NCBI GenBank assembly: GCA_045128715.1
Contig: JBGVRU010000017.1
Location: 18,909-82,908 of the forward strand
From: Acutalibacteraceae bacterium
Lineage (GTDB): Bacteria; Bacillota; Clostridia; Oscillospirales; Acutalibacteraceae
Direction: 5' to 3'
Length of the DNA stretch: 64,000 nt
The notes under the pieces are model-generated. The model saw only the letters and a program-made list of their open reading frames with translations. It was not told where the DNA came from and did not search any database. The stretch's first letter is position 1, and each line of letters begins with the position of its first letter. Of the stretch, positions 1 through 47,695 are shown in pieces. The translations under genes were made by a program, and so were the position numbers.

Positions 1-991
1 TTACGATTACATTATTATATAATTTAGTTGGAGTAAACGAAGCAATAACCTTTTTTCCATCTGTAACCGAAACGGTAGTTTCAGCAGATTCGATATTATA
101 CATAAAAGACGGTTGCGTAGAGGATGGAGCAAAGGCTGTAGCCATACCTGAAGAGCCTACTATTACCGCAACACCTCCGTTAACGGTAGCTGTTCCGCCG
201 TAGTCCAATGAGCCATTGCCATTGTTTGTAGGACCTGATACTAAAAGAATACCGCCCGAAATGGTAATATCACCATTTGAGTCAATACCGTCACCTGAAG
301 CATTAACTAAGATATAACCGTCAGTAAAATTAATCTGTGCATTCGAATCACTTTCAAATGGATTTTGTCCTGGACGACCTCCCATTGAGGAGGAGTCATT
401 ACCGCCTGCAGCATTAAAACCGTCATCCAAAGCAGTAAGATCTATATCGCCACCCGATACGGTTATTGCAGTGGCTTCTATACCTTCGTAGGATTTGGTA
501 ATTTTTAATGTGCCGTTTGAAATAATAAGCTGGTCATCAGCATGAATACCGTCGTCACCTGATGATATATTAAAGCTACCTCCTTTAATTTCAAGGTCAC
601 TGTTTGAATGAATGGCATCGTCAGAAGAATCAATATTAAAATCACCGTTATCTATTTCAATTAAACTAACTGCTTTTAATGCCTTTGCACTGTCATTATC
701 AGTAGAGCTGCTTTGTCCGCCCCACATACCCCAACGATTGCCTTCACTACCGTAATTATTGCTGCTCACTGCAGAGCCGCCGCCTGTTTTGATGTTGAAT
801 TTACCATTCCTTATAAAAAGTGCAGTTTCAGCTTGGATACCGTCATTCTGAGCAGTAATGTCAAAGCTGCCCGATTCTATCAGCACATATCCGCGTGTTC
901 CGTCCTCGGTGTTGGTTGATTTAATACCGTCGGTTCCGGCATTTACAGTAATATCAGAATTAGAAATTTTAACACAATCCTTACTTATCAT
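1..991 (-). CDS. beta-helix-like repeat / carbohydrate-binding-domain protein (type associated with VTC/CotH clusters); partial, runs off the window start and lacks a normal N-terminus
   Basis: Minus-strand frame is open from ATG 991 to position 1. It is absent from the ORF track because it has no stop in the window. My translation reads MISKDCVKISNSDITVNAGTDGIKSTNTEDG...SSGDDGIHADDQL...ASGDGIDSNGDITISGG..., with a periodic DGI(K/Q/H/D)S repeat. No signal peptide follows this start. Confidence 0.6.
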   Translation of the reverse strand, partial: MISKDCVKISNSDITVNAGTDGIKSTNTEDGTRGYVLIESGSFDITAQNDGIQAETALFIRNGKFNIKTGGGSAVSSNNYGSEGNRWGMWGGQSSSTDNDSAKALKAVSLIEIDNGDFNIDSSDDAIHSNSDLEIKGGSFNISSGDDGIHADDQLIISNGTLKITKSYEGIEATAITVSGGDIDLTALDDGFNAAGGNDSSSMGGRPGQNPFESDSNAQINFTDGYILVNASGDGIDSNGDITISGGILLVSGPTNNGNGSLDYGGTATVNGGVAVIVGSSGMATAFAPSSTQPSFMYNIESAETTVSVTDGKKVIASFTPTKLYNNVIV

Positions 992-1394
992 AAATATTTG
1001 TTAAATAATTATAACCGTCTATGTAATCCGTAGCTATTCTTCTTTTGTAAACAACACCTTTAAACTTCTTTTTTATTTCTAAAAAGCAGGTACTCTTGTC
1101 ACTTGGTGTTCCGTAACATCGAAGCCGCAATTTTTCTTTATAAACAGGTTTTTCAATAGATTTCCGTATAATTCTGAAATCAGGTGTATCGAAATAAAGG
1201 TTACAGATATCACTTTCGCCGTATTTATCGGACACGGTATTTAGTGACAGCATATTTAAAGCATCATTATACTGTTCGGTGTTTAGTAAATACTTTTTTT
1301 CATAACGCTTAAAAATATATTGTGCCAAATTATCACCTCGCAAAATGTATTTTAATAGGATTTTTTCGTTAAATTGTGAATATATTTTTAACAA
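981..1394 (-). CDS. VTC (CYTH-like, polyphosphate polymerase) domain protein, C-terminally truncated fragment (137 aa; my recollection is that the family is roughly 230-250 aa)
   Basis: Contains FKRYEKKYLL, NLYFDTPDF, KPVYKEKLRLRCYG and FLEIKKKFKGVVYKRR, which match the N-terminal half of bacterial VTC domain proteins. The ORF stops where the next gene's sequence begins. Confidence 0.6.
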   Translation of the reverse strand: MLKIYSQFNEKILLKYILRGDNLAQYIFKRYEKKYLLNTEQYNDALNMLSLNTVSDKYGESDICNLYFDTPDFRIIRKSIEKPVYKEKLRLRCYGTPSDKSTCFLEIKKKFKGVVYKRRIATDYIDGYNYLTNIYDK

Positions 1395-1448
1395 GTGTGA
1401 TAATATTTTGAAAACTATTGGTAATGTCGTTTTTTGCTGAATTTTGAG

Positions 1449-1477
1449 TTGACATAAAACATTGAGAAATGTATAAT
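1449..1477 (+). promoter_or_regulatory. sigma-A type promoter (TTGACA-17-TATAAT)
   Basis: TTGACA at 1449-1454, a 17-nt spacer, TATAAT at 1472-1477; about 45 nt upstream of the 1523 start. Confidence 0.6.
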
Positions 1478-1522
1478 AAATGTGTATTTATAAAAATCAT
1501 CTTTTAAAGAAAGGGAACATGA

Positions 1523-3280
1523 ATGCACAAACTTAAAAAATCTTTTTCTTTATGTTTAGTGTTGCTTATAACGCTCACTTCAATATTCAACGGTGTTAAT
1601 TTAAATGTTTCGGCTTCTACTGTCACCACTGCTTATATAGAGGGTTCAAATATTAATGTAAGAGTAGCTCCCTCTAAAACAGATACTATTATTGAAAAGA
1701 TTTCATACACAACTGCCACTGTTCTAGAAACGGTAAATGACGGCACCTGGCTAAAAATTACTTATCATAACGGTATTGAGCAAATAACAGGATATATTTT
1801 TTATGATTCATCCTATATCAGAGTGGTAACTTATAATCCTGATGCCGATTTTGAAACCAAGCTGTTGGCTTTTCCAGAAAGCTATCGTGACGCTTTAAGA
1901 GGTCTAAAGGCAATATATAAAAACTGGGAATTTATTCCCGACCCCGTAACCATTACCTTTGCTGAGGCTGTGGCTTTAGAATCGGTTAATATGCGTAAGC
2001 AGGTGAGTTTTAGCTCACAACCTGTATCATGGCGTTCTATGGGTAGCGGTGCTTATGATTGGAATAAAGGTGAATGGGTAGTAACAAACGGCGGCTGGAC
2101 AGGTGCTTCAAGAGAAATTACCGCCTATTATATGGATCCTCGCAATTTTCTTAATACTACAGAAATTTATCAGTTTTTACAGCAGGGTTATGACCCTTCT
2201 TATCAAAATGAAGAGGGTGTTAAAAAGATAATAGCCGGCACTTTTATGGAAGTTAATTACAGCGATCCTAATGATATTGTCTACGGTGGCTCCTATGCCA
2301 AGGTTATTATGGAAGCTGCAAAGCAGGCGGGGGTAAGCCCTTATATATTAGCTTCTAAAATAAGGCAGGAAATCGGTGTTTCGGTTACCAATATGGTATC
2401 GGGTACATACTCCGGTTATGAGGGATATTACAATTTCTTTAATATCGGCGCTTCGGGAGGCGATTCGGGTACTGTTTTGATAAACGGATTGTCGCGTGCT
2501 AAATCAGAGGGATGGGATACACGCTCTAAGGCTATAATAGGCGGTGCGAAGTTTCTTTCTAATAACTATATCTCAAGGGGACAGGACACATATTATTATC
2601 AGGATTTTAATGTTCATAAGCCTAATGAGTTATGGCATCAATATGCTCAGGCAATTCACGATGCAAATTCTAAGGGTAAGCTTATGGCGGATTCTTATAT
2701 AAACGAAACCGATTTTGCACTCACTTTTAAAATACCTGTCTATACTGCAATGCCTGAATCTGTATCTCCGTTGCCGGTTTCTAATTCCAGTAAAAATAAT
2801 TATTATTTTGAAAATATTTCTGTTTCAGGCCTTACACCGTCATTTTCAATTTTTACCTATAATTACGATATGCATATTTCTGGTGACACCACGGTATATG
2901 TAAAGCCTGTAAATGGAGCTTCTTATGTAGGAGAGGGCAGTTACCAAATTAAAAATGGCAATAACACCGTTTCTCTAAAGGTTAAATCCGAAACAGGCTA
3001 TATCACAGATTATGTTTTGAATATTGATTCCTCTGTAGACTGTACTTTAACCGTAAGCTCAGGTACAGCGCCTATCCCCACGGTAAAGCGTGGCGACACA
3101 AACGGTGATGGAGCAATCACTTTAAGTGACCTTGCAAATATAAGACTTCATCTTTTAGGCAAGTTTACCCTGAGCGGTGATAATGCGTATGCAGCTGATA
3201 CAAATAAGGATAATCAGATTACATTAAGCGATTTGGCAAATGTGCGTTTACATTTGTTGGGATTATTTACAATTTCTTAG
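1523..3280 (+). CDS. secreted SH3b + GH73-type N-acetylglucosaminidase (peptidoglycan hydrolase) + cadherin-like beta-sandwich + C-terminal type I dockerin
   Basis: Signal peptide MHKLKKSFSLCLVLLITLTSIF...VSA. SH3b-like segment YIEGSNINVRVAPSK...WLKITY. Glucosaminidase-like segment YAKVIMEAAKQAGVSPYILASKIRQEIG...YYNFFNIGA. Duplicated Ca-binding dockerin DTNGDGAITLSDLANIRLHLLG / DTNKDNQITLSDLANVRLHLLG. Confidence 0.75.
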   Translation: MHKLKKSFSLCLVLLITLTSIFNGVNLNVSASTVTTAYIEGSNINVRVAPSKTDTIIEKISYTTATVLETVNDGTWLKITYHNGIEQITGYIFYDSSYIRVVTYNPDADFETKLLAFPESYRDALRGLKAIYKNWEFIPDPVTITFAEAVALESVNMRKQVSFSSQPVSWRSMGSGAYDWNKGEWVVTNGGWTGASREITAYYMDPRNFLNTTEIYQFLQQGYDPSYQNEEGVKKIIAGTFMEVNYSDPNDIVYGGSYAKVIMEAAKQAGVSPYILASKIRQEIGVSVTNMVSGTYSGYEGYYNFFNIGASGGDSGTVLINGLSRAKSEGWDTRSKAIIGGAKFLSNNYISRGQDTYYYQDFNVHKPNELWHQYAQAIHDANSKGKLMADSYINETDFALTFKIPVYTAMPESVSPLPVSNSSKNNYYFENISVSGLTPSFSIFTYNYDMHISGDTTVYVKPVNGASYVGEGSYQIKNGNNTVSLKVKSETGYITDYVLNIDSSVDCTLTVSSGTAPIPTVKRGDTNGDGAITLSDLANIRLHLLGKFTLSGDNAYAADTNKDNQITLSDLANVRLHLLGLFTIS

Positions 3281-3298
3281 TTAAGGGAGATTAAGTAT

Positions 3299-4843
3299 AT
3301 GAAAAAGATTTTAAAAACTGCTGTTGGATTAATTCTCAGTATTATAACTTTAACTTCTGTTTTAATAATAAATACTTCTGCGGCAGGTACTATTATTTCT
3401 TTCAACAAAAAATCTTTGACAGTTGGCGATACTGTTACCGTTACCGTTACTCTTGATGCCGGTGAAGCAATGTATTCGGCAGGTTGTGTGATAAATTATG
3501 ATAATAACGTAATTAACTATACATCAGGCAATGCTGTAGGTAATGCGGGTTCACTTAAAATTGTTGAGTCACCCTCTGGCGAAACTAAGGTTTCTTATTC
3601 TTTAACCTTTACTGCCGTTGCTGCTGGCAGCTCAGTTATATCTGTGGCGGACTGTAATTACGATACACTTGGTGCTAACGGTGCAGCATCTAAGGGCCTT
3701 TCCGGTGCATCTGCTACTTTAACCGTAAACAATGTCGCACTTTCTTCAAATGCTAATTTAAGCGCATTATCTTTAAGTGCAGGAACTCTTTCACCACGCT
3801 TTTCTGCTTCAAGAACAAGCTATACCGTTGCTGTTAAAAACTCTGTAACCGAATGTAAGATTTATGCTACTGCGGCTGACAGCGGTGCTAAGGTTGAGGT
3901 TAGCGGAGATGCTACACTTAAAATAGGTAAAAACATCCGCACTGTTACCGTTACCGCTCCAAGCGGCGCACAAAAAGTTTACACAATAACAATCAACCGT
4001 AGCGAAACTGATGAAGTGGTATCTTTAGAGGAAACTCCGACAGAGCCCACTGAAAACAAGCTTGAAACTTTAATAGAGGGTGTAACATATACTGTTGCTA
4101 CCGATATTTCCGCTGTGCCATTGTTTAAAGGCTTTACTGCGGCTACTGCACAGTACAACTCTCAGGATGTTGCTGTTGCTACCGATGCATATAATAATTA
4201 TAAGCTTTATTACTTAAAGGCAACCGACAGCGATATACTTGTTCCATTTACTTATGATGAAGAAAATAAGCTTTTCACAAAGCTTCTTTACTTTACTCAG
4301 GGTGAAAACACATATATTTATGCAGATATTCCTGAAGATAAGACCGTTAGCGATGGCTTTTACATAACTTCTGCCACAATCGGCGGAAATGAAGTTAAGT
4401 GCTTTGCAAGTAATGATTCTTCCTCTAGCGACTTCTATTATTTATACTGCTTTATAGACGGACGTTACGGTTTTTACCGTTATGACAGCCGTGAAAACGT
4501 AATTCAGCGTTATCCCGAATTAGAATTAGTAGATGTTGAGTTGGTAACAGATGATGAAAAGTCGGACAATATTTTCGTGCGATTTGCTTCTCTTACCACA
4601 AACGCTAAGCTTATTGTTATATCAATTATTTTGATTGTTATTTTCGCCATTGTGCTTGTTATTTTACTTATAATTAAATTTGTAAAGCGTAAGGGATCGG
4701 ATGTATATGACAATGACCAAGAACTACTTGGCGACAATGCATTCGATAACATTTCTTTCGGTAGCTTTTCAGTGAATGACAATGAAGAGGCTGACAGCGC
4801 CGAATCGGATACCGAAATTGTAAGCGAAGAAGCGGAAAACTAA
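3299..4843 (+). CDS. cell-surface cohesin-like + cadherin-like domain protein with C-terminal transmembrane anchor and acidic tail
   Basis: Signal peptide. Cohesin-like module LTVGDTVTVTVTLDAGEAMYSAGCVINYDNNVINYTSG...FTAVAAGSSVISV. Cadherin-like module NANLSALSLSAGTLSPRFSASRTSYTVAV...YTITINR. TM helix LIVISIILIVIFAIVLVILLII, then a D/E-rich tail. Confidence 0.55.
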   Translation: MKKILKTAVGLILSIITLTSVLIINTSAAGTIISFNKKSLTVGDTVTVTVTLDAGEAMYSAGCVINYDNNVINYTSGNAVGNAGSLKIVESPSGETKVSYSLTFTAVAAGSSVISVADCNYDTLGANGAASKGLSGASATLTVNNVALSSNANLSALSLSAGTLSPRFSASRTSYTVAVKNSVTECKIYATAADSGAKVEVSGDATLKIGKNIRTVTVTAPSGAQKVYTITINRSETDEVVSLEETPTEPTENKLETLIEGVTYTVATDISAVPLFKGFTAATAQYNSQDVAVATDAYNNYKLYYLKATDSDILVPFTYDEENKLFTKLLYFTQGENTYIYADIPEDKTVSDGFYITSATIGGNEVKCFASNDSSSSDFYYLYCFIDGRYGFYRYDSRENVIQRYPELELVDVELVTDDEKSDNIFVRFASLTTNAKLIVISIILIVIFAIVLVILLIIKFVKRKGSDVYDNDQELLGDNAFDNISFGSFSVNDNEEADSAESDTEIVSEEAEN

Positions 4844-4849
4844 AATTTT

Positions 4850-4879
4850 AACCGACTGTGTAAAAGCAGTCGGTTTTTT
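4850..4879 (+). terminator. rho-independent terminator
   Basis: AACCGACTG / CAGTCGGTT stem followed by a T-run, directly after the 4843 stop. Confidence 0.75.
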
Positions 4880-4912
4880 GTAATGAATTGAAAAAAAATT
4901 TCATATTTTTAA

Positions 4913-5188
4913 TTGGTGATAAATTTGAATACTTTAAAAATATTGGGAATTGTTTTAATATCCTTTTCAGCTTTTTTGATACTTATTTTTTCTTTATTGA
5001 GCAAAAAGCCTTTAGCTACTTTGCTTTTTAATAGTTTTATCGGCATAGTTTTGCTTGCAATAATTGACTTAACCTCTGGTTATTCAGGCGTTTATATTCC
5101 TACAAATCTATATACCGTTTTAGGCAGTGGTGTTTTCGGTATACCGGCAATAATCGGGTTTCTGTTGCTAAATATTATTTTTATGTAA
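4913..5188 (+). CDS. bofA: pro-sigma-K processing inhibitor BofA family protein
   Basis: About 90 aa with two TM segments; the C-terminal LGSGVFGIPAIIGFLLL resembles the BofA LLG.PG motif; sporulation genes occur elsewhere in the window. TTG start with a weak RBS. Confidence 0.5.
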   Translation: MVINLNTLKILGIVLISFSAFLILIFSLLSKKPLATLLFNSFIGIVLLAIIDLTSGYSGVYIPTNLYTVLGSGVFGIPAIIGFLLLNIIFM

Positions 5189-5252
5189 TTAATACTCGCA
5201 AAATGCTTTGGTTTATGGTAAAATTAATTTTAGTAAAATCGGTGGTGAAATA

Positions 5253-8200
5253 ATGCTTCAGTTTATTTTAGGCAAACCCTCATCAGGAAAAACCTTTACG
5301 GTAATAAAAAAAATTAAAGATTTAACTAAAATCGGTAAAGAGTCCATTCTAATAGTGCCTGAGCAATTTACCTTTGAAAGTGAGCGTCTTATCCTTAAAG
5401 AATTGGGGGACAAGGCATCTCTTAACGTATCTGTACTTAGCTTCACACGTCTTTATGATGAGGTGGGCAGAAATGTAGGTGGAATTGCAGGCACTGTGTT
5501 GGAGGATGCTGATAAGGTTATTTTTATGAGTCGAGCTTTAAATATTTTAAAGGACGAGCTTAAGCTGTGGCGAAGATATGTATCTTCGGTAAGTTTTGCT
5601 AAAACAATGCTTGATACGGTTGGTGAATTTAAAATAAATGCTTTCGGCTGTGACGATTTACTAGAAGCCGCGGAGGAAATCAAAAACCCTCCGCTTGCGG
5701 CCAAGCTACAAGAAATAGCATTAATTTACCGTCAGTACGATATGTTTGTTGGCGAAAAATTTATTGACACTGCTGACTGCCTTACAAAGCTTTACAATAC
5801 TCTTGGTAACTATAATTTTTTTGAAGGAAAAACTGTTTTTCTTGATTCTTTTAAAGGGTTTACCGGTCAGCAGTTTAAGATTATTGAAAGAATTATCAGT
5901 CAAGCAGAGAATGTTTACATAAGCCTCACAGATGATGTGTATAACAATAAACAGTTTGGTGTTTATACAAATATACGCATTGCTGCCGAGCGTATTAAAA
6001 AATTCGCTGTTTCTTGCGGTAAAACTGTGGCAGAACCAATAATTTTAAACAAAACTTTCTATAAAGCAACTGCTCTTAAAGGCCTCGAAAATTTAATGTC
6101 GAGTGGAAAATGTGTTGATTTTACCGATGATGGCAGTGTTATTATACGAAAATCAACCGATATTTATGATGAGGCGGAGGCAGCAGCACGCACTATAAGA
6201 AGACTAGTTCGCACAAAGGGCTATCGCTACCGTGATTTTGTTATAATTGCCCGTGATGCCGATAGCTGTAATGAGGCTGTTGCAAATGCCTGCAAACGCA
6301 ATGATATAAGCTGTTTTTATGATAACCGTCTTCCATTATCAGCTTTTCCGCTCTCGGTTGCAGTAGAAGCGGCTATAGCTGCTATAAAGCTTAATTCGGC
6401 AGATATATTGCGTTTCAATAAAACGGGACTTGGCTACCTTATGCCTGAAGAAATTTCCTTTTTGGAAAATTATGTTTATTTGTGGAATATAGAGGGGGAG
6501 GATTGGCTAAAAGTATGGGATATGGATCCCAGAGGCTTTACTACTAATCCTATTAACCAAATAGAATTTACGGAAAAATTAGAAAAGCTTAATAAATTAA
6601 GAGGACTGGCTATCAAGCCAATATTAAATTTTAAAAAACACTTTGGTACTAATGCAAAAATAATGGTTGAGGCTATTTTTACTTTATTCGATGAATGCGA
6701 TTTTACAACTAAGCTATCCAATATTTCGGATAAATTGGATAACGATGCTTCGGATTTCTCATTAGAGGTGATGAAATCTGCTTATGACCAGTACATTAGT
6801 ATTCTCAGCAGTATGGTGCGTTGCTACGGCGAAATGAATATTACTACTGCTGTCTTTACTGAAGGCTTGAGCCTTGCGGTTTCATTAGCCAGCGTTGGTG
6901 TTATTCCGCAAATGCTTGATCAGGTCACCTTTGGCTCAGCTGACAGAATTCGCCCGTCGCGACCTAAAATTGCCTTTATAATCGGTGCTAATCAGGGCAT
7001 TTTTCCGCAATTTACCTCGAATAACGGTCTATTTAATATTATAGAACGTCGTAATCTTATTAGTGCTGGTCTTAATATTGCGGATAATTCTGTTTATTCC
7101 TCTGTTGATGAAGAATATCTTGTTTACTGTAATGTTTGCTGCCCATCCGACAGGTTGTACATTTCTTTCAGCGAGCAAACTGTTTCGGGCGAAAGCTTAG
7201 AGCCATCTGCCTTTGTAAGAAATGCTTTGGACAAGCTTTGCCTTAATTTGGTATCAGATACACTGGAAGAGCTAAACGAGTTTAACGCCCCTCAGACTGA
7301 GGCTGCTGCATTTACCGATTATTGCCGCAATAAGCTGAGATCTCCCATTACCGCTTTAACTATTGCTTATGCTTTGGAAGCTACGGAAACAGGTGAGAAG
7401 ATAAACCATTTAAAAGATGTTACTGGAACAATCAAAAAATGTTTAGCTTCCGATACTGCTAAGAAATTATACGGCAGTAACATTAGTATGTCTGCTACAA
7501 AGTTTGATACTTATAATCGCTGTAAGTTTTCGTTCTTTTGCCGTTACGGTTTAGGTGCCCAAAAATTGCTTCCTGCTGAGTTTAACGTTATGCAAAGAGG
7601 TACTGTAGTTCACTTTGTTTTGGAGCGACTTATATCTGAACATGGGGACAATATTTCTGAGCTTACAAATGATGAGCTTGATATATTAACCGAAAAATAC
7701 ATCAATATGTATCTTGACAGTGTTAATGGTTATCGTAGCACTGAAAATGCAAAAAGCAGATTTTTAGTTTCAAGAATATCACGTTCTTTAAAGGAGGTAA
7801 TTCACCATATTGCGGCTGAGCTTAGTCAAAGCAAATTTAAGCCTAAAGCCTGTGAACTCGGAATAGGTACCGAAAATGCTGATATAAATGTTAGGTTTCC
7901 GTTTGACGAAGGTAATATTTCATTGATAGGTAGCATCGACCGTGTGGACGAATATAATGGATTCATACGTATAATTGACTACAAGACAGGCTCTAAAAGC
8001 TTCAAGCTTCCCGATATACTGTTCGGTCTAAATATGCAAATGCTTATTTATCTTTATGCTGTTATCAGGGGCAACGGCATTGATGACGATAATGCTGCAG
8101 GAATTTTGTATCAGCCGTCTCGACGTGATATTAATGATAATGGTATGGCAATGAACGGTCTGTTACCCTCCGTTCCAGAGCTGTTTTTTGCAATGGATAA

Positions 8201-18815: not shown

Positions 18816-20093
18816 TTAATTTTTAACTATTACCGAAACACCGTCGGGAATAGCAATAATTTTTACATCCTGCTTATTAAGTATTTTCCTTGCTTTATTT
18901 AAAGCCTCTTCAATACTGTGAGCCGGAATCAAATGCATAGCTTCAATCAAACTGTCTGGTAATTCAGAAACATATATTACAGTTGCCTTCAATAGAATTC
19001 TTAAAAGTATCTGTGCTTCCCACTGATCAGGAAGTGTTTCATGCCTGCCACGCTTTAAAATATCCGACATACTTTTAGCAATATCCTTTTCATAGGCTAC
19101 CTGATTATAAAAATGGTCACCGCCAGTGCCGTCAAGAGAAGCTGCAAGCATAATTATAACGCCACCTTTTTTAACAGTGGCTTCAGCGGCGGTCATTCCC
19201 TTTACAGCTTGATAAATATTTTGGTCAAGAGGATATCCGCCGTTAGTTGATATTGCAATATCTGATTCGATCGCATCAACACTGCAAAGCTTTGAAAGAA
19301 AATCAGTACCCGCTTTATGCGCCATTTCAGGATCGCCTGCAGCAGCAAACAAAACTTCTTTTTCAGCATTAAGAACTACGTTTACTATAAATTTAAGCTT
19401 TGCGGTTTTTGCAGCCCAAAGCATATCCTTGTGTACAGGGTTATTTTCAAGAATTCCCGTACGTGCGTTTGGACTGTTTAAAAATTCCGAACAATGATTA
19501 CACATAACAGTGGGGCGGCTTGCAATGCCAGGTAATACACTTTTTCTCCCACCTGAAAAACCCGCAAAGAAATGTGGTTCTATAAATCCTTCAGAAATCA
19601 GCAGATCAGCTTCAATAGCTATAGAATTGATTTCACAGTCGCCACCTGAGGGGAGTTTGCCAATATTTACAAGCTTTTCGCGTTCATCACAATCGTGTAT
19701 GTAAATTTTTTCATTTTCAACGATTTGCTCACCAAATTTGGCTTTAAGCTCTTCCCTTGTGGTACCTCTGTGGCAGCCTGTGGCTATTAGTATGGTGATT
19801 TGGGCATTAGGGTTAGTGCTTCTAATCTCATCAAGCATAGCCGGTATTATCACCTTGCTAGGCACAGGACGTGTATGGTCACTTGCAATAATTACAATTT
19901 TATTTTTTTTACGCGCTAACTCTGATAGCCTTTCAGAACCAATGGGATTTTTTAAGGCTTCACGCACCAACTCTTCGCCATTTAGTTCTTCTTTATATTC
20001 ATTTATTGCGGAGGTAAGAACTCCTGAAAGCTCATTCTCATTAAAATCATAACTCAGATTAGATTTACCGTACGGAAACATTATTTCTTTCAA
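18816..20093 (-). CDS. larA: nickel-pincer-dependent lactate racemase family protein (LarA / DUF2088)
   Basis: 425 aa; IIASDHTRP and IATGCHRG motifs and an overall LarA-like layout. Confidence 0.75.
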   Translation of the reverse strand: MKEIMFPYGKSNLSYDFNENELSGVLTSAINEYKEELNGEELVREALKNPIGSERLSELARKKNKIVIIASDHTRPVPSKVIIPAMLDEIRSTNPNAQITILIATGCHRGTTREELKAKFGEQIVENEKIYIHDCDEREKLVNIGKLPSGGDCEINSIAIEADLLISEGFIEPHFFAGFSGGRKSVLPGIASRPTVMCNHCSEFLNSPNARTGILENNPVHKDMLWAAKTAKLKFIVNVVLNAEKEVLFAAAGDPEMAHKAGTDFLSKLCSVDAIESDIAISTNGGYPLDQNIYQAVKGMTAAEATVKKGGVIIMLAASLDGTGGDHFYNQVAYEKDIAKSMSDILKRGRHETLPDQWEAQILLRILLKATVIYVSELPDSLIEAMHLIPAHSIEEALNKARKILNKQDVKIIAIPDGVSVIVKN

Positions 20094-25829: not shown

Positions 25830-26669
25830 TTAATTAAAAATTTTAGGATTTACTATAGCTTCATACCCGTCACAGAGAGCTTCTTTAGAAATTGCGAGTA
25901 TAGGTTTTTTTATTGTAATATTACTGCTTTGGGTTTTAATATCTGCCCTTTCGCAGCGGTAACCATCTAAAGTATCCATTCCTGTAACTGTGGTGCACGG
26001 TACAACACGGTAACGCTTTTTTAAAGAATCATCTGTGCTAATATCTCTTTCTCCGAAAAGTGAATAGTATACCGATTTATCAGCAATTATTACTTCCGAT
26101 TTACCGAATATGTCTTCGATAGAATTACCGGTATCGATAATGGCATTTAAGCTGACCTTACTTTCCTCTGCAAACAACGTTATTTCGCATTTCTCCGCCG
26201 CTTTAGATGTGCCTGAAAAAATGCGGATCAAAGCTGTAAAGGTTAAATAAAATGCTACAGTTGAGCAAATTAATATCAGCGGTGATATATTAAAGTAAAC
26301 CACCGAGTTATTTATTATCATTCCGTCAGGTTTAAATATGTGCCAAACTGCTATCATAATTCCGGCATATAAACAGGTCACACAGAAGACCGTTCCGCTT
26401 GCTTTTAAAAAATACTTTAGACTTTTATAACCGAAGGACAATAAAGTCATTACAATGCAAATTACAAGCTTATACAGCAACTCAAAAATCACAGCTGATT
26501 GCGGTAAAAATATGTAAAGCGAGGATACACCCCCGAAAGCCGCTGATAAAATAATACGAATGATTTTAGCTTTTGAACAAAGAAATCGCTTTACTGCCAA
26601 AAGTAAAAAGTAATTTACTATTAAGTTAAGAATAATTAATATGTCAGCATAAACTACCAATATAATCAC
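25830..26669 (-). CDS. spoIIGA: sigma-E processing peptidase SpoIIGA
   Basis: Five N-terminal TM segments and the aspartic protease motif AIIDTGNS; adjacent to sigE. Confidence 0.85.
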   Translation of the reverse strand: MIILVVYADILIILNLIVNYFLLLAVKRFLCSKAKIIRIILSAAFGGVSSLYIFLPQSAVIFELLYKLVICIVMTLLSFGYKSLKYFLKASGTVFCVTCLYAGIMIAVWHIFKPDGMIINNSVVYFNISPLILICSTVAFYLTFTALIRIFSGTSKAAEKCEITLFAEESKVSLNAIIDTGNSIEDIFGKSEVIIADKSVYYSLFGERDISTDDSLKKRYRVVPCTTVTGMDTLDGYRCERADIKTQSSNITIKKPILAISKEALCDGYEAIVNPKIFN

Positions 26670-26760
26670 CGGTTATATTATACATTTTTAAAAATGAAAA
26701 AAAGGTCGATAAAAAAGGTATAAAAAAATTACTTATCTGATTTTTAATCGGATAAGTAAT

Positions 26761-45606: not shown

Positions 45607-47695
45607 AGTTATCGCTCCTTTCGGTTAGTAATTTATAAGTCGGCGAATTTAAAAGGTTGGTTTTAACTCCGTTTACAGCCTTATAAAAACCCTTGGTACT
45701 TTTTTCTATAAGACCTAATTCTTCTAAGGTTAAAAGAGAAATACAGGTTTTACCGAAACCTAAATCATTCATAAATATATATTTTATTCTATCAGGTAAT
45801 ATTTCTTCCTCGGAAATTTTCTTGAAAACAAAACCTACTTCTTCTCTAGTTGGCAAAAGCTTTAAAGGATCATATACCCTGCCCGACATAAAATTATTGA
45901 ACTCTGTTACAGAATCAAACAGACTGTCATCATTAGTACCGTTAATTCTTAGTGCTTTTATTTGTACAGAAACCGAATATTCGCCTCTGAATAAATTTGC
46001 TTCTACCGATACCGCTAAATCCAAAGTGTCACCTGTTTTAAAACAAAAATTATCAGTTGAAACACCGAAAAGCATAGCCTGAAATGAATTATTGCCTTTA
46101 GTGAATAAAAGTCTTAAATGCTTATTATTGGCTACAGGGGTAATTCTTTCCAAAGCAACACCGTAAACACCGAATAGCGGCGCTTTATTACCGGCACCAT
46201 AAGGCTCTAATTCCTTTAAAGCAAAAGCTAAATCAAGGGAAAGTGCCGATGGGTTCAACCTGCAATCTAAATTAAGAACAGGCGGAATAAAGGGTAAATT
46301 TGCAGCATAGTCATTGATTCTTTTTCTAAATTCAGGAATATCATCTGGTTTAAGGCTAATACCTGCCGCCTGATCGTGACCTCCAAATTTAATTGTTAAA
46401 TCCCTGCAAGAGTTAATGGCATTGTAAAGTGAAAAGCCTTCAATACTTCTGCCTGAACCTGAAGCTAAATCACCGTCAATGGAAATCAGTACCGAAGGAC
46501 AACCATATTTCTCGGTAATTCTTGCGGCTACAATGCCCACAACACCGTGATGCCAGTCCTTGCTGGCCGCCACTATAATACGGTCATACATCAGCTTCTC
46601 AGTTTCAATTATTTGCACAGCCTGATCTAAAATTTTCTTTTCAATTTGCTGCCTTACAGTGTTTTCACTGTCAATTTCGTTTGCTATTCCGAGCGCAATC
46701 ATCATATTATCGGTCATAAGGAGCTCCACTGCCCGTTCTGCCTTGCCCATTCTGCCTGCAGCGTTTATTCTAGGGCAAAGTCCAAAAGCTATTCTAGAGG
46801 CATTTACAGAAGATTTTTCAATACCTGCTACATTTAGGAGAGCAGAAAGACCTGTAAGTGGCGCAGTTTTAAGCTTTTCAATACCGCACTTTACAATGCT
46901 TCTGTTTTCTAAGGTCAAGGGCATTATATCGGCAATTACCGCCAAGGCTAAAATATCTGCAAAATAAGGGAGTAATTCTTCTGGCTCCTTGTTTTCCATG
47001 ACGCAAATAAGCCTGAATGTTACCTCAGCGCCGCAAATTTCCTTAAAAGTAGATGGGCAGTCCTTTCTATGAGGGTCAACAACAGCATCGGCTATAGGCA
47101 ATGTATCAGAGGGTAAGTGATGGTCAGTTACAACCACTTTCATACCAAGCTCCTTAGCAAGAGCGATTTCCTCATTGCATACGATACCGTTATCAACCGT
47201 AACTATCAGCTTTGTATGCTCGTTAAAAAGCTTTTTTATTGCATTTATATTCATACCGTAGCCCTCTGTAAAGCGGTCAGGTATATAATAGCAGCAATTA
47301 GCGTCTCTGGTTTTCAAATAGTTATATAAAAGTGCGGTTGCGGTAACGCCGTCACAGTCATAGTCGCCGTAAACAGCTATCTTTTCGCCCGTTTCAATAG
47401 ACTCATTGATAATTTCAGCGGCTTTTACAATATCAGCCATTTCGTAAGGGTTCGAAAAGCAGGGGTCGTTAGATAAAAATTCTTCTAATTCGCAGGGGTC
47501 AGAATACCCTCTTGCAGAGGCTATGAGCGCTACAATAGGGTCAACATTACATTCTTCTGCCAATTCTTTAGCAAGCTGCTTATCATAGCTTGCTACCTGC
47601 CATTTTTTAAGCCCCAAAGTGTTCACCGCCCTTAATGCAATTTTGAGTTGCTTATCAATAATTATCGACAAGCAGTAAATCAATTTAAATTTCAA
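45599..47695 (-). CDS. recJ: single-stranded-DNA-specific exonuclease RecJ
   Basis: DHH motifs (VYGDYDCDGVT, VVTDHH), DHHA1 (GGHDQAAG). The true start is probably internal (TTG near 47617, giving ...GLKKWQV); the first 26 codons of the track ORF look non-coding. Confidence 0.85.
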   Translation of the reverse strand: MKFKLIYCLSIIIDKQLKIALRAVNTLGLKKWQVASYDKQLAKELAEECNVDPIVALIASARGYSDPCELEEFLSNDPCFSNPYEMADIVKAAEIINESIETGEKIAVYGDYDCDGVTATALLYNYLKTRDANCCYYIPDRFTEGYGMNINAIKKLFNEHTKLIVTVDNGIVCNEEIALAKELGMKVVVTDHHLPSDTLPIADAVVDPHRKDCPSTFKEICGAEVTFRLICVMENKEPEELLPYFADILALAVIADIMPLTLENRSIVKCGIEKLKTAPLTGLSALLNVAGIEKSSVNASRIAFGLCPRINAAGRMGKAERAVELLMTDNMMIALGIANEIDSENTVRQQIEKKILDQAVQIIETEKLMYDRIIVAASKDWHHGVVGIVAARITEKYGCPSVLISIDGDLASGSGRSIEGFSLYNAINSCRDLTIKFGGHDQAAGISLKPDDIPEFRKRINDYAANLPFIPPVLNLDCRLNPSALSLDLAFALKELEPYGAGNKAPLFGVYGVALERITPVANNKHLRLLFTKGNNSFQAMLFGVSTDNFCFKTGDTLDLAVSVEANLFRGEYSVSVQIKALRINGTNDDSLFDSVTEFNNFMSGRVYDPLKLLPTREEVGFVFKKISEEEILPDRIKYIFMNDLGFGKTCISLLTLEELGLIEKSTKGFYKAVNGVKTNLLNSPTYKLLTERSDNCD

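Follow-up and report, generated by a model that had tools for sequence, protein, structure and literature searches.

A predicted dockerin–cohesin pair associated with a GH73-type peptidoglycan glucosaminidase and a membrane-anchored stalk protein in small-genome gut Clostridia

Introduction

Docking of dockerins into cohesins is the textbook principle by which cellulosomes and amylosomes are assembled. Here we describe a two-gene locus of an Acutalibacteraceae bacterium (assembly GCA_045128715.1) in which this plug-and-socket device, as judged from sequence, appears to serve housekeeping, by keeping a peptidoglycan glucosaminidase on the membrane of the cell that produces it. The locus occupies positions 1523–4843 of a stretch of 64,000 nucleotides (nt) of contig JBGVRU010000017.1; this whole stretch is called the window below. 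Gene 1 encodes a putative secreted glucosaminidase with a C-terminal dockerin, and gene 2 encodes a membrane protein carrying a predicted cohesin at its distal end. The pair occurs in gut Clostridia that have small genomes and are non-fibrolytic, several of them without any other cohesin or dockerin.

[quoted passage not shown] Like the bacteria considered here, R. bicirculans is a non-cellulolytic gut member of the Oscillospirales, and its only cohesin–dockerin pair goes with GH73, as in the single-pair genomes described below. The likeness of the R. bicirculans pair to the present one is a likeness of description. In the literature searched, this remark was the only precedent found, and no binding, localization, genetic or functional data on such a pair were found. 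It is the one mention found of an arrangement in which docking of the cellulosome type would keep a housekeeping autolysin on the cell’s own membrane.

Docking outside plant-fibre degradation is likewise represented by NanJ (GH33) and GH84C of Clostridium perfringens (PDB entries 2vo8, 2w1n and 2jh2), which provide the closest structures to the gene 2 cohesin. In C. perfringens these modules link secreted host-glycan-degrading enzymes together, whereas here the cargo is a putative peptidoglycan hydrolase and the cohesin is borne on a membrane-anchored stalk. Sequence identity between the gene 2 cohesin and the C. perfringens cohesins is 14–19%.

The closest functional analogue is SagB of Staphylococcus aureus, a membrane-anchored glucosaminidase whose position for cutting newly made glycan strands is set by the membrane protein SpdC (Schaefer et al., bioRxiv 10.1101/2020.05.21.109470). 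SagB and gene 1 share one GH73 sub-type of catalytic domain, and in both cases a glucosaminidase is kept at the membrane by a positioning partner, which for the present locus is a prediction. SagB has its own N-terminal transmembrane helix, whereas the gene 1 product has a cleavable signal peptide and no transmembrane helix. SpdC is a CAAX-protease-like protein with eight transmembrane helices, whereas the gene 2 product is a single-pass protein, to which the enzyme would be attached by dockerin–cohesin docking.

The anchoring scaffoldins of cellulosomes and amylosomes resemble the present system in that their surface cohesin anchor has a C-terminal transmembrane helix and the F-hands of their type I-like dockerins are duplicated. 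Transmembrane-anchored proteins with a single cohesin have also been noted in ruminococci, where their partners are unknown (PMC13463774, PMC11557425). Unlike scaffoldins, the system described here comprises one cohesin and one cargo that would act on the cell’s own wall and not on dietary polysaccharide, and one domain in the stalk of gene 2 belongs to a family that has not been seen in scaffoldins. Neither dockerin of the source genome sits on a fibre- or starch-degrading enzyme. The locus is not classed as a cellulosome or amylosome, since a single cohesin serves a single cargo and a fibre-degrading enzyme is absent. The data presented below support the view that the pair joins two known kinds of system, namely non-cellulosomal cohesin–dockerin docking and membrane autolysins positioned by a partner.

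Pairing of the two genes

Two adjacent open reading frames (ORFs) were found where a preliminary description of the window, made from the DNA letters and their translations, had placed them:

1523–3280, plus strand: gene 1, a secreted protein of 585 amino acids (aa) with SH3b, GH73 glucosaminidase, cadherin-like and dockerin modules (ORF, domain matches and homologues)
3281–3298, plus strand: intergenic spacer of 18 nt with a GGGAG ribosome-binding site (sequence)
3299–4843, plus strand: gene 2, a type I membrane protein of 514 aa with a distal cohesin (ORF; family of more than 800 proteins)

The gap is short, as had been described, and measures 18 nt, not 19. Four independent lines of sequence evidence, namely synteny, a census of cohesins and dockerins, co-divergence and recognition residues, support the pairing of the two genes.

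A gene 2 homologue was found in 63 species-level genomes; 57 loci were tabulated, and 52 of these retained upstream DNA. A GH73–cadherin-like–dockerin gene lies directly upstream of the gene 2 homologue in 52 of 52 loci, down to 30% identity, the exception being one upstream gene among them that is without a detectable dockerin (L023). Synteny in relatives, which the preliminary description had named as a check, is thus conserved. The spacers between the two genes are mostly 0–38 nt long (one is 99 nt), and a ribosome-binding site is present in most of 58 related loci. The downstream bofA–addB flank is syntenic in many loci and varies between others.

The source genome (1.62 Mb, 97% complete) contains, according to a genome search, two dockerins and three cohesins in total. 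Within its genus, five genomes (G002, G004, G006, G022 and G023) carry exactly one dockerin and one cohesin each, adjoining on one strand. Exactly one dockerin and one cohesin, again adjacent and on the same strand, are also present in two genomes from other families (G038 and G040).

Within the genus (G001–G024; genomes of 1.0–2.3 Mb), the number of dockerins per genome ranges from 1 to 30. Since some members carry up to 30 dockerins, the GH73 pair is retained whether or not a larger system is present, and it follows from the same range that some members have a larger, possibly amylosome-like, system besides the GH73 pair.

The other two cohesins of the source genome are canonical (PF00963, 50–55 bits). 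One of them (C59, minus strand, 45693–46076) belongs to a protein of about 356 aa that has a region rich in Cys as well as a transmembrane helix at its C terminus; the other (C25, minus strand, 26356–26727) belongs to a protein of about 157 aa whose signal is lipoprotein-like (…GVTGC). The second dockerin (C59, minus strand, 19331–19453) is found in a secreted protein of 1,505–1,513 aa with no other Pfam domain; it is internal, consists of a single repeat and scores 22.8–30 bits (22.8 by hmmscan against a cut-off of 22.9).

Co-divergence was analyzed with pairwise identity matrices of seven segments in 48 gene pairs. The identity of the dockerins correlates best with that of the cohesins, and this correlation persists when GH73, the beta domain and the two cadherin-like modules are regressed out (partial Mantel r = 0.47, p = 0.0005). 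With the neighbouring module of its own protein the dockerin has no residual correlation (r = 0.12, p = 0.06).

Dockerin positions 10, 11, 17 and 18 are identical across both repeats in nearly every species. The same recognition residues in both repeats are the hallmark of a dual binding mode. These residues form 20 four-residue types among the 48 species. Mapped on the backbone tree, the dockerin type requires 23 changes, compared with a minimum of 19 and with 34–37 for shuffles; this near-minimal number indicates mostly vertical inheritance with few homoplasies, for example in L008, and gives no support to frequent swapping of the cassette in this clade. An Arg or Lys at dockerin position 17 is combined with a Glu or Asp at cohesin position 90 (motif IVE-SP-SGE) in 42 of 48 pairs, the strongest association among 173 acidic columns tested across both proteins. 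Dockerin Arg17 and cohesin Glu90 may therefore be listed as a candidate salt bridge, which is suggestive only. In an analysis of column-wise mutual information, only the columns of E90 and 119–123 stand out.

Gene 1: a putative secreted glucosaminidase with a dockerin

The following features were identified in gene 1:

1523–1615, plus strand: signal peptide (aa 1–31, cleaved between …NVSA and S), read by eye from a basic N terminus, a hydrophobic core and an AxA-like cleavage site
1646–1816, plus strand: SH3b-like module (aa 42–98; PF08239, SH3_3)
1865–2746, plus strand: GH73-type N-acetylglucosaminidase region (aa ~115–408; NCBIfam SagB and PDB sequence matches)
2369–2371, plus strand: catalytic Glu E283 (alignment to AtlE)
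2804–3037, plus strand: cadherin-like beta-sandwich spacer (aa 428–505; profile–profile comparison with hhalign)
3092–3262, plus strand: dockerin (aa 524–578; PF00404) with two near-identical 22-residue F-hand repeats, DTNGDGAITLSDLANIRLHLLG and DTNKDNQITLSDLANVRLHLLG

This is the architecture that had been read from the translation, the SH3_3 match being just sub-threshold (25.1 bits, E 2e-5, slightly under the cut-off of 27). PF08239 is precomputed in most gene 1 homologues.

The catalytic region matches the NCBIfam model of SagB (NF052642) with 76.7 bits (E 1.6e-21, aa 189–395). Sequence matches in the PDB comprise AtlE (4pi7, E 1e-16), Atl (6fxo, 5e-15) and SagB (6fxp/6u0o, 5e-15) of S. 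aureus. E283 aligns with the Glu that is changed to Ala in the AtlE E138A entry 4pi8; the two AtlE entries (4pi7 and 4pi8) differ solely by this catalytic mutation. The residue is kept in 47 of 48 homologues. By homology, the catalytic domain of gene 1 is assigned to a divergent SagB/AtlE-like sub-type of GH73. Its NF052642 score is far under the equivalog cut-off of 425 bits. Because of this low score, the lack of a transmembrane helix and the different partner, the pair is best regarded as resembling SagB in function, with gene 1 not a member of the SagB family.

PF01832 (Glucosaminidase) is precomputed for none of 120 gene 1 homologues. Public sources name this family only “SH3 domain-containing protein,” since its GH73 domain is invisible to PF01832. 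The naming of gene 1 thus represents an annotation gap, in which the GH73 domain of a whole family is missed.

The cadherin-like module of gene 1 was matched by profile–profile comparison only, namely to the PF12733 domain of gene 2 (aa 428–505; hhalign probability 98%, E 1e-13). The dockerin, for which PF00404 had been suggested as a check, is recognized by this model with 34.0 bits, above the cut-off of 22.9 (38.5 bits in the genome search), and type I dockerins in the PDB match it at E 1e-5. In an AlphaFold2 (AF2) model it has a predicted local distance difference test score (pLDDT) of 94–97. Both repeats fit the F-hand calcium-binding pattern with D/N at loop positions 1, 3, 5 and 12 (DTNGDGAITLSD... 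and DTNKDNQITLSD...), and the calcium-ligand aspartates D525, D529, D536, D559, D563 and D570 show a conservation of at least 98%.

Gene 2: a membrane-anchored stalk with a predicted distal cohesin

The gene 2 product starts with a signal peptide, which is followed by a mini-cohesin, a cadherin-like module and an acidic linker; next come an all-beta domain, a transmembrane helix and an acidic tail. The cohesin-like and cadherin-like modules, the membrane helix and the acidic tail had all been recognized in the preliminary description, along with the signal peptide. The modules following the signal peptide are:

3389–3733, plus strand: mini-cohesin (aa 31–145; PF00963, AF2 and Foldseek)
3758–4000, plus strand: cadherin-like beta-sandwich (aa 154–234; PF12733, 41.3 bits against a cut-off of 24.2)
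4007–4063, plus strand: acidic Ser/Thr/Pro/Glu linker (aa 237–255; sequence)
4064–4534, plus strand: membrane-proximal all-beta domain (aa 256–412; AF2; conserved, without a Pfam model)
4607–4675, plus strand: transmembrane helix (aa 437–459), a hydrophobic run of 23 residues followed by KFVKRK
4676–4840, plus strand: acidic cytoplasmic tail of 55 aa with 16 D/E and 4 K/R

PF00963 is precomputed in about half of more than 100 full-length gene 2 homologues. A PDB sequence search with gene 2 gave no match at E ≤ 1. Structure prediction made use of the fact that genes 1 and 2 share a reading frame and are separated by one TAG and five sense codons. Because of the common frame, the read-through segment at positions 3056–3748 of the window (dockerin, spacer, signal peptide and cohesin, with the stop read as Gly) could be folded by AF2 as one chain. 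The alignment consisted of 96 rows, paired and unpaired, for which the related loci supplied 15 in-frame fusions, 43 dockerins and 37 cohesins. Read-through served here as a modelling convenience only and is not claimed to occur; the shared frame is found in 15–17 of the 58 related loci, about the chance expectation.

The mean pLDDT of the model is 91, and values across the cohesin are 94–98. The top matches of the modelled cohesin in a Foldseek search of the PDB are 2vo8, 2w1n and 2jh2 (E 3e-8 to 1e-7, template modelling (TM) scores 0.72–0.73), which are the non-cellulosomal cohesins of C. perfringens NanJ/GH84C. Further matches comprise cohesins of types I, II and III, which like the top three have a probability of 1.00, and the Archaeoglobus fulgidus cohesin; the best 25 matches are almost all cohesins. 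The N-terminal module of gene 2 is therefore predicted to have the cohesin fold, a nine-stranded jelly-roll beta-sandwich like that of solved cohesins. The assignment as a cohesin, based in the preliminary description on sequence pattern, agrees with both the fold and its nearest structural neighbours. Failure of this module to fold as a cohesin, which had been named there as a refutation, was not what the model showed.

The linker corresponds to a variable, gap-rich stretch in the family alignment. The all-beta domain that follows it is the most conserved part of gene 2 and bears most of the family-invariant residues. It was modelled by AF2 with a pLDDT of 92 and a predicted TM score (pTM) of 0.82 as a hairpin-rich domain of 16 strands. 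Foldseek searches with this model against the PDB and BFVD gave a best E of about 0.1 (none below 0.09) with TM scores below 0.22, and thus no solved neighbour. A profile of the domain retrieved 2,405 cluster representatives (50% identity) from 1.8 billion proteins; nearly all of them are 470–550 aa long with the domain at about aa 250–420, which is the architecture of gene 2. Within the order, the domain is present in 30 of 401 genomes and in 8 of 178 genera. This large family without a model or structural relative represents a second annotation gap. In the cytoplasmic tail, an F-D motif is conserved in the gene 2 family alignment.

Proposed function and alternative explanations

The two-gene operon probably makes a trans-assembled, membrane-tethered peptidoglycan glucosaminidase that acts on the wall of its own cell. 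We infer dockerin–cohesin binding, enzyme activity, a self-directed housekeeping role and a “ruler” function of the stalk. Transcription of both genes would be driven by a strong vegetative promoter of the sigma-A consensus type. The gene 1 product would be exported by means of its signal peptide, with the SH3b module serving in binding to the wall, and would carry at its C terminus a dockerin with two symmetric calcium-binding repeats. The stalk encoded by gene 2 would present, from the membrane outwards, the all-beta domain, the acidic linker, the cadherin-like module and, at its far tip, the cohesin. With the dockerin plugged into this membrane-anchored cohesin, the enzyme would be held at a set distance above the membrane of its producer instead of diffusing off, and there it could cut the glycan strands of the cell’s own wall during growth or division. 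A self-contained two-gene tether had been envisaged in the preliminary description; synteny, the sibling genomes with a single pair and co-divergence argue for the tether, and its self-containment does not extend to the source genome, which holds further cohesins and a dockerin.

Several results weigh against the proposed tethering. Since the source genome has two extra cohesins and a second, weak dockerin, there is room for cross-binding. The R17/E90 trait has undergone only about four state changes on the tree, which is why this association was graded above as suggestive; phylogenetically independent contrasts offered two to four usable pairs, with which significance is unreachable. When the recognition positions of the dockerin were compared with every column of gene 2 by mutual information, the cohesin was not enriched overall (Mann–Whitney p = 0.47). 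Searched with PF01832, the model suggested for this purpose, gene 1 gave no match at E ≤ 1; what upholds the GH73 claim is homology to SagB and AtlE together with E283. The score of gene 2 against PF00963 is borderline: the model, also suggested as a check, gave 23.1 bits by hmmscan, below the cut-off of 24.1, but reached 25.1 bits when the genome was searched in six frames. The pTM of the AF2 read-through model is 0.57, a value that neither shows nor excludes a confident interface.

A bolder version of the proposal is speculative and, taken as a whole, rather unlikely. According to it, gene 2 would be no passive leash but would represent a new class of proteins that position autolysins, corresponding to SagB–SpdC but assembled in trans. 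The fixed length of the stalk would set the cutting distance, and by way of the beta domain and acidic tail the enzyme would be linked to the machinery of wall synthesis or division. Dockerin and cohesin would diversify at their interface into private locks and keys, so that in dense gut communities a cell captures only its own autolysin.

If confirmed, the tethering of a glucosaminidase by gene 2 would be a new kind of spatial control of autolysins, beside SagB–SpdC, FtsEX-dependent hydrolases and LytH–ActH. It would also suggest that the components of cellulosomes are put to a wider, and possibly older, use, and the family would offer a supply of small, naturally orthogonal cohesin–dockerin pairs.

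One alternative is that the two modules are not mutual partners: the gene 1 dockerin might bind the cohesin on C25 or C59, or the gene 2 cohesin might hold other cargo, for example the 1,513-aa dockerin protein, so that adjacency would reflect co-regulation only. The presence of three cohesins and two dockerins in the source genome leaves scope for such exchanges, the other cohesins score 50–55 bits with PF00963 and that of gene 2 only 23–25, and the pTM of the joint AF2 model is only 0.57. This reading is nevertheless improbable, as the pair comprises the sole dockerin and the sole cohesin in at least seven related genomes, the divergence of the dockerin tracks the adjoining cohesin specifically, and the only competing dockerin is an internal single repeat whose 22.8 bits fall under the cut-off of 22.9.

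Transcription and a possible role in sporulation

Two signals delimit the pair:

1449–1477, plus strand: sigma-A/sigma-70 consensus promoter TTGACA-17-TATAAT, 46 nt before the gene 1 start
4850–4885, plus strand: intrinsic terminator with a 10-bp stem, five GC pairs and a T-run (sequence)

The promoter matches the consensus at 12 of 12 positions and is the sole perfect match within positions 1–7000 of the window. The hairpin of the terminator spans 4850–4875 and is followed by the T-run. A single consensus promoter upstream and a terminator downstream had been noted before, and both were confirmed. A perfect sigma-A promoter is located 30–50 nt before gene 1 in 34 of 46 related loci, most failures being start-codon miscalls. 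There are 47 perfect TTGACA-17-TATAAT sites in the whole source genome; N-terminal translations behind some of them resemble, by eye, those of what we take to be alanyl-tRNA synthetase, GreA, TypA/BipA and EF-P. As far as can be read from its type, the promoter points to strong vegetative expression of the pair.

Two further motifs recur around this promoter (window positions 1419–1500; loci L001–L058). The first, resembling TTTTGTCGAAT, lies about 10–25 nt upstream of the -35 element, and the second, TGTAT(A/G)T-like, is found 5–8 nt downstream of the -10 element. The first could be an UP element or the site of a regulator, and the second a conserved region at the transcription start.

The preliminary description had also considered lysis of the mother cell. 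More generally, the pair could be a sporulation device that takes part in lysis of the mother cell, in engulfment or in remodelling of the cortex, and its expression would then be confined to sporulating cells. The gene directly downstream is bofA, syntenic in many loci, and operons of a hydrolase and a membrane partner are known from sporulation, SleB–YpeB being an example. We give this possibility little credence. The promoter matches the sigma-A consensus perfectly, as it does in 34 of 46 loci, and is not of the sigma-E, K, F or G type, which likewise disfavours the role in mother-cell lysis; a terminator stands between gene 2 and bofA; and the bofA–addB flank is absent or inverted in many loci bearing the pair, for example L009, L012 and L013–L022. 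Sporulation as the main explanation was rejected because the sigma-A promoter is conserved.

Direction of enzyme action and the question of docking

Instead of acting on the wall of its producer, the enzyme could be aimed outward, as a surface bacteriolysin against neighbours or for harvesting peptidoglycan from the gut lumen, with the diversified dockerin and cohesin types keeping the weapon private. SH3b targeting modules are common in bacteriolysins, the stalk of the ectodomain is long (about 400 aa), and the 20 recognition types among 48 species would fit private weapons as well. A very small probability was assigned to this explanation, given that the anchor is located in the cytoplasmic membrane, beneath the wall of the producer, that the catalytic domain is nearest to the housekeeping autolysins SagB, AtlE and Atl, that no immunity gene is evident in the operon, and that the pair is inherited mainly vertically in a core-genome neighbourhood.

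Least probable of all is a reading without any docking, in which the supposed cohesin of gene 2 would be only a generic beta-sandwich and the dockerin a calcium-binding stabilizer or wall-binding tail, since the borderline score of the cohesin model and the many orphan dockerins discussed for non-cellulosomal organisms (PMC4081043) are set against Foldseek matches of which the best 25 are almost all cohesins, the passing of PF00963 by half of the gene 2 family, the specific co-divergence of dockerin and cohesin and several genomes in which the pair is the sole, adjacent dockerin and cohesin.

Neighbouring genes

The neighbours located 3′ of the terminator are bofA, addB and addA. On the other flank, the minus strand (positions 2–1394 of the window) carries a VTC-domain gene, which is truncated, together with a gene for a Cthe_2159 beta-helix protein. 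The VTC-domain ORF of 137 aa covers only positions 1–114 of the 235 positions of PF09359, and it overlaps the start of the Cthe_2159-type beta-helix protein, which leaves the window.

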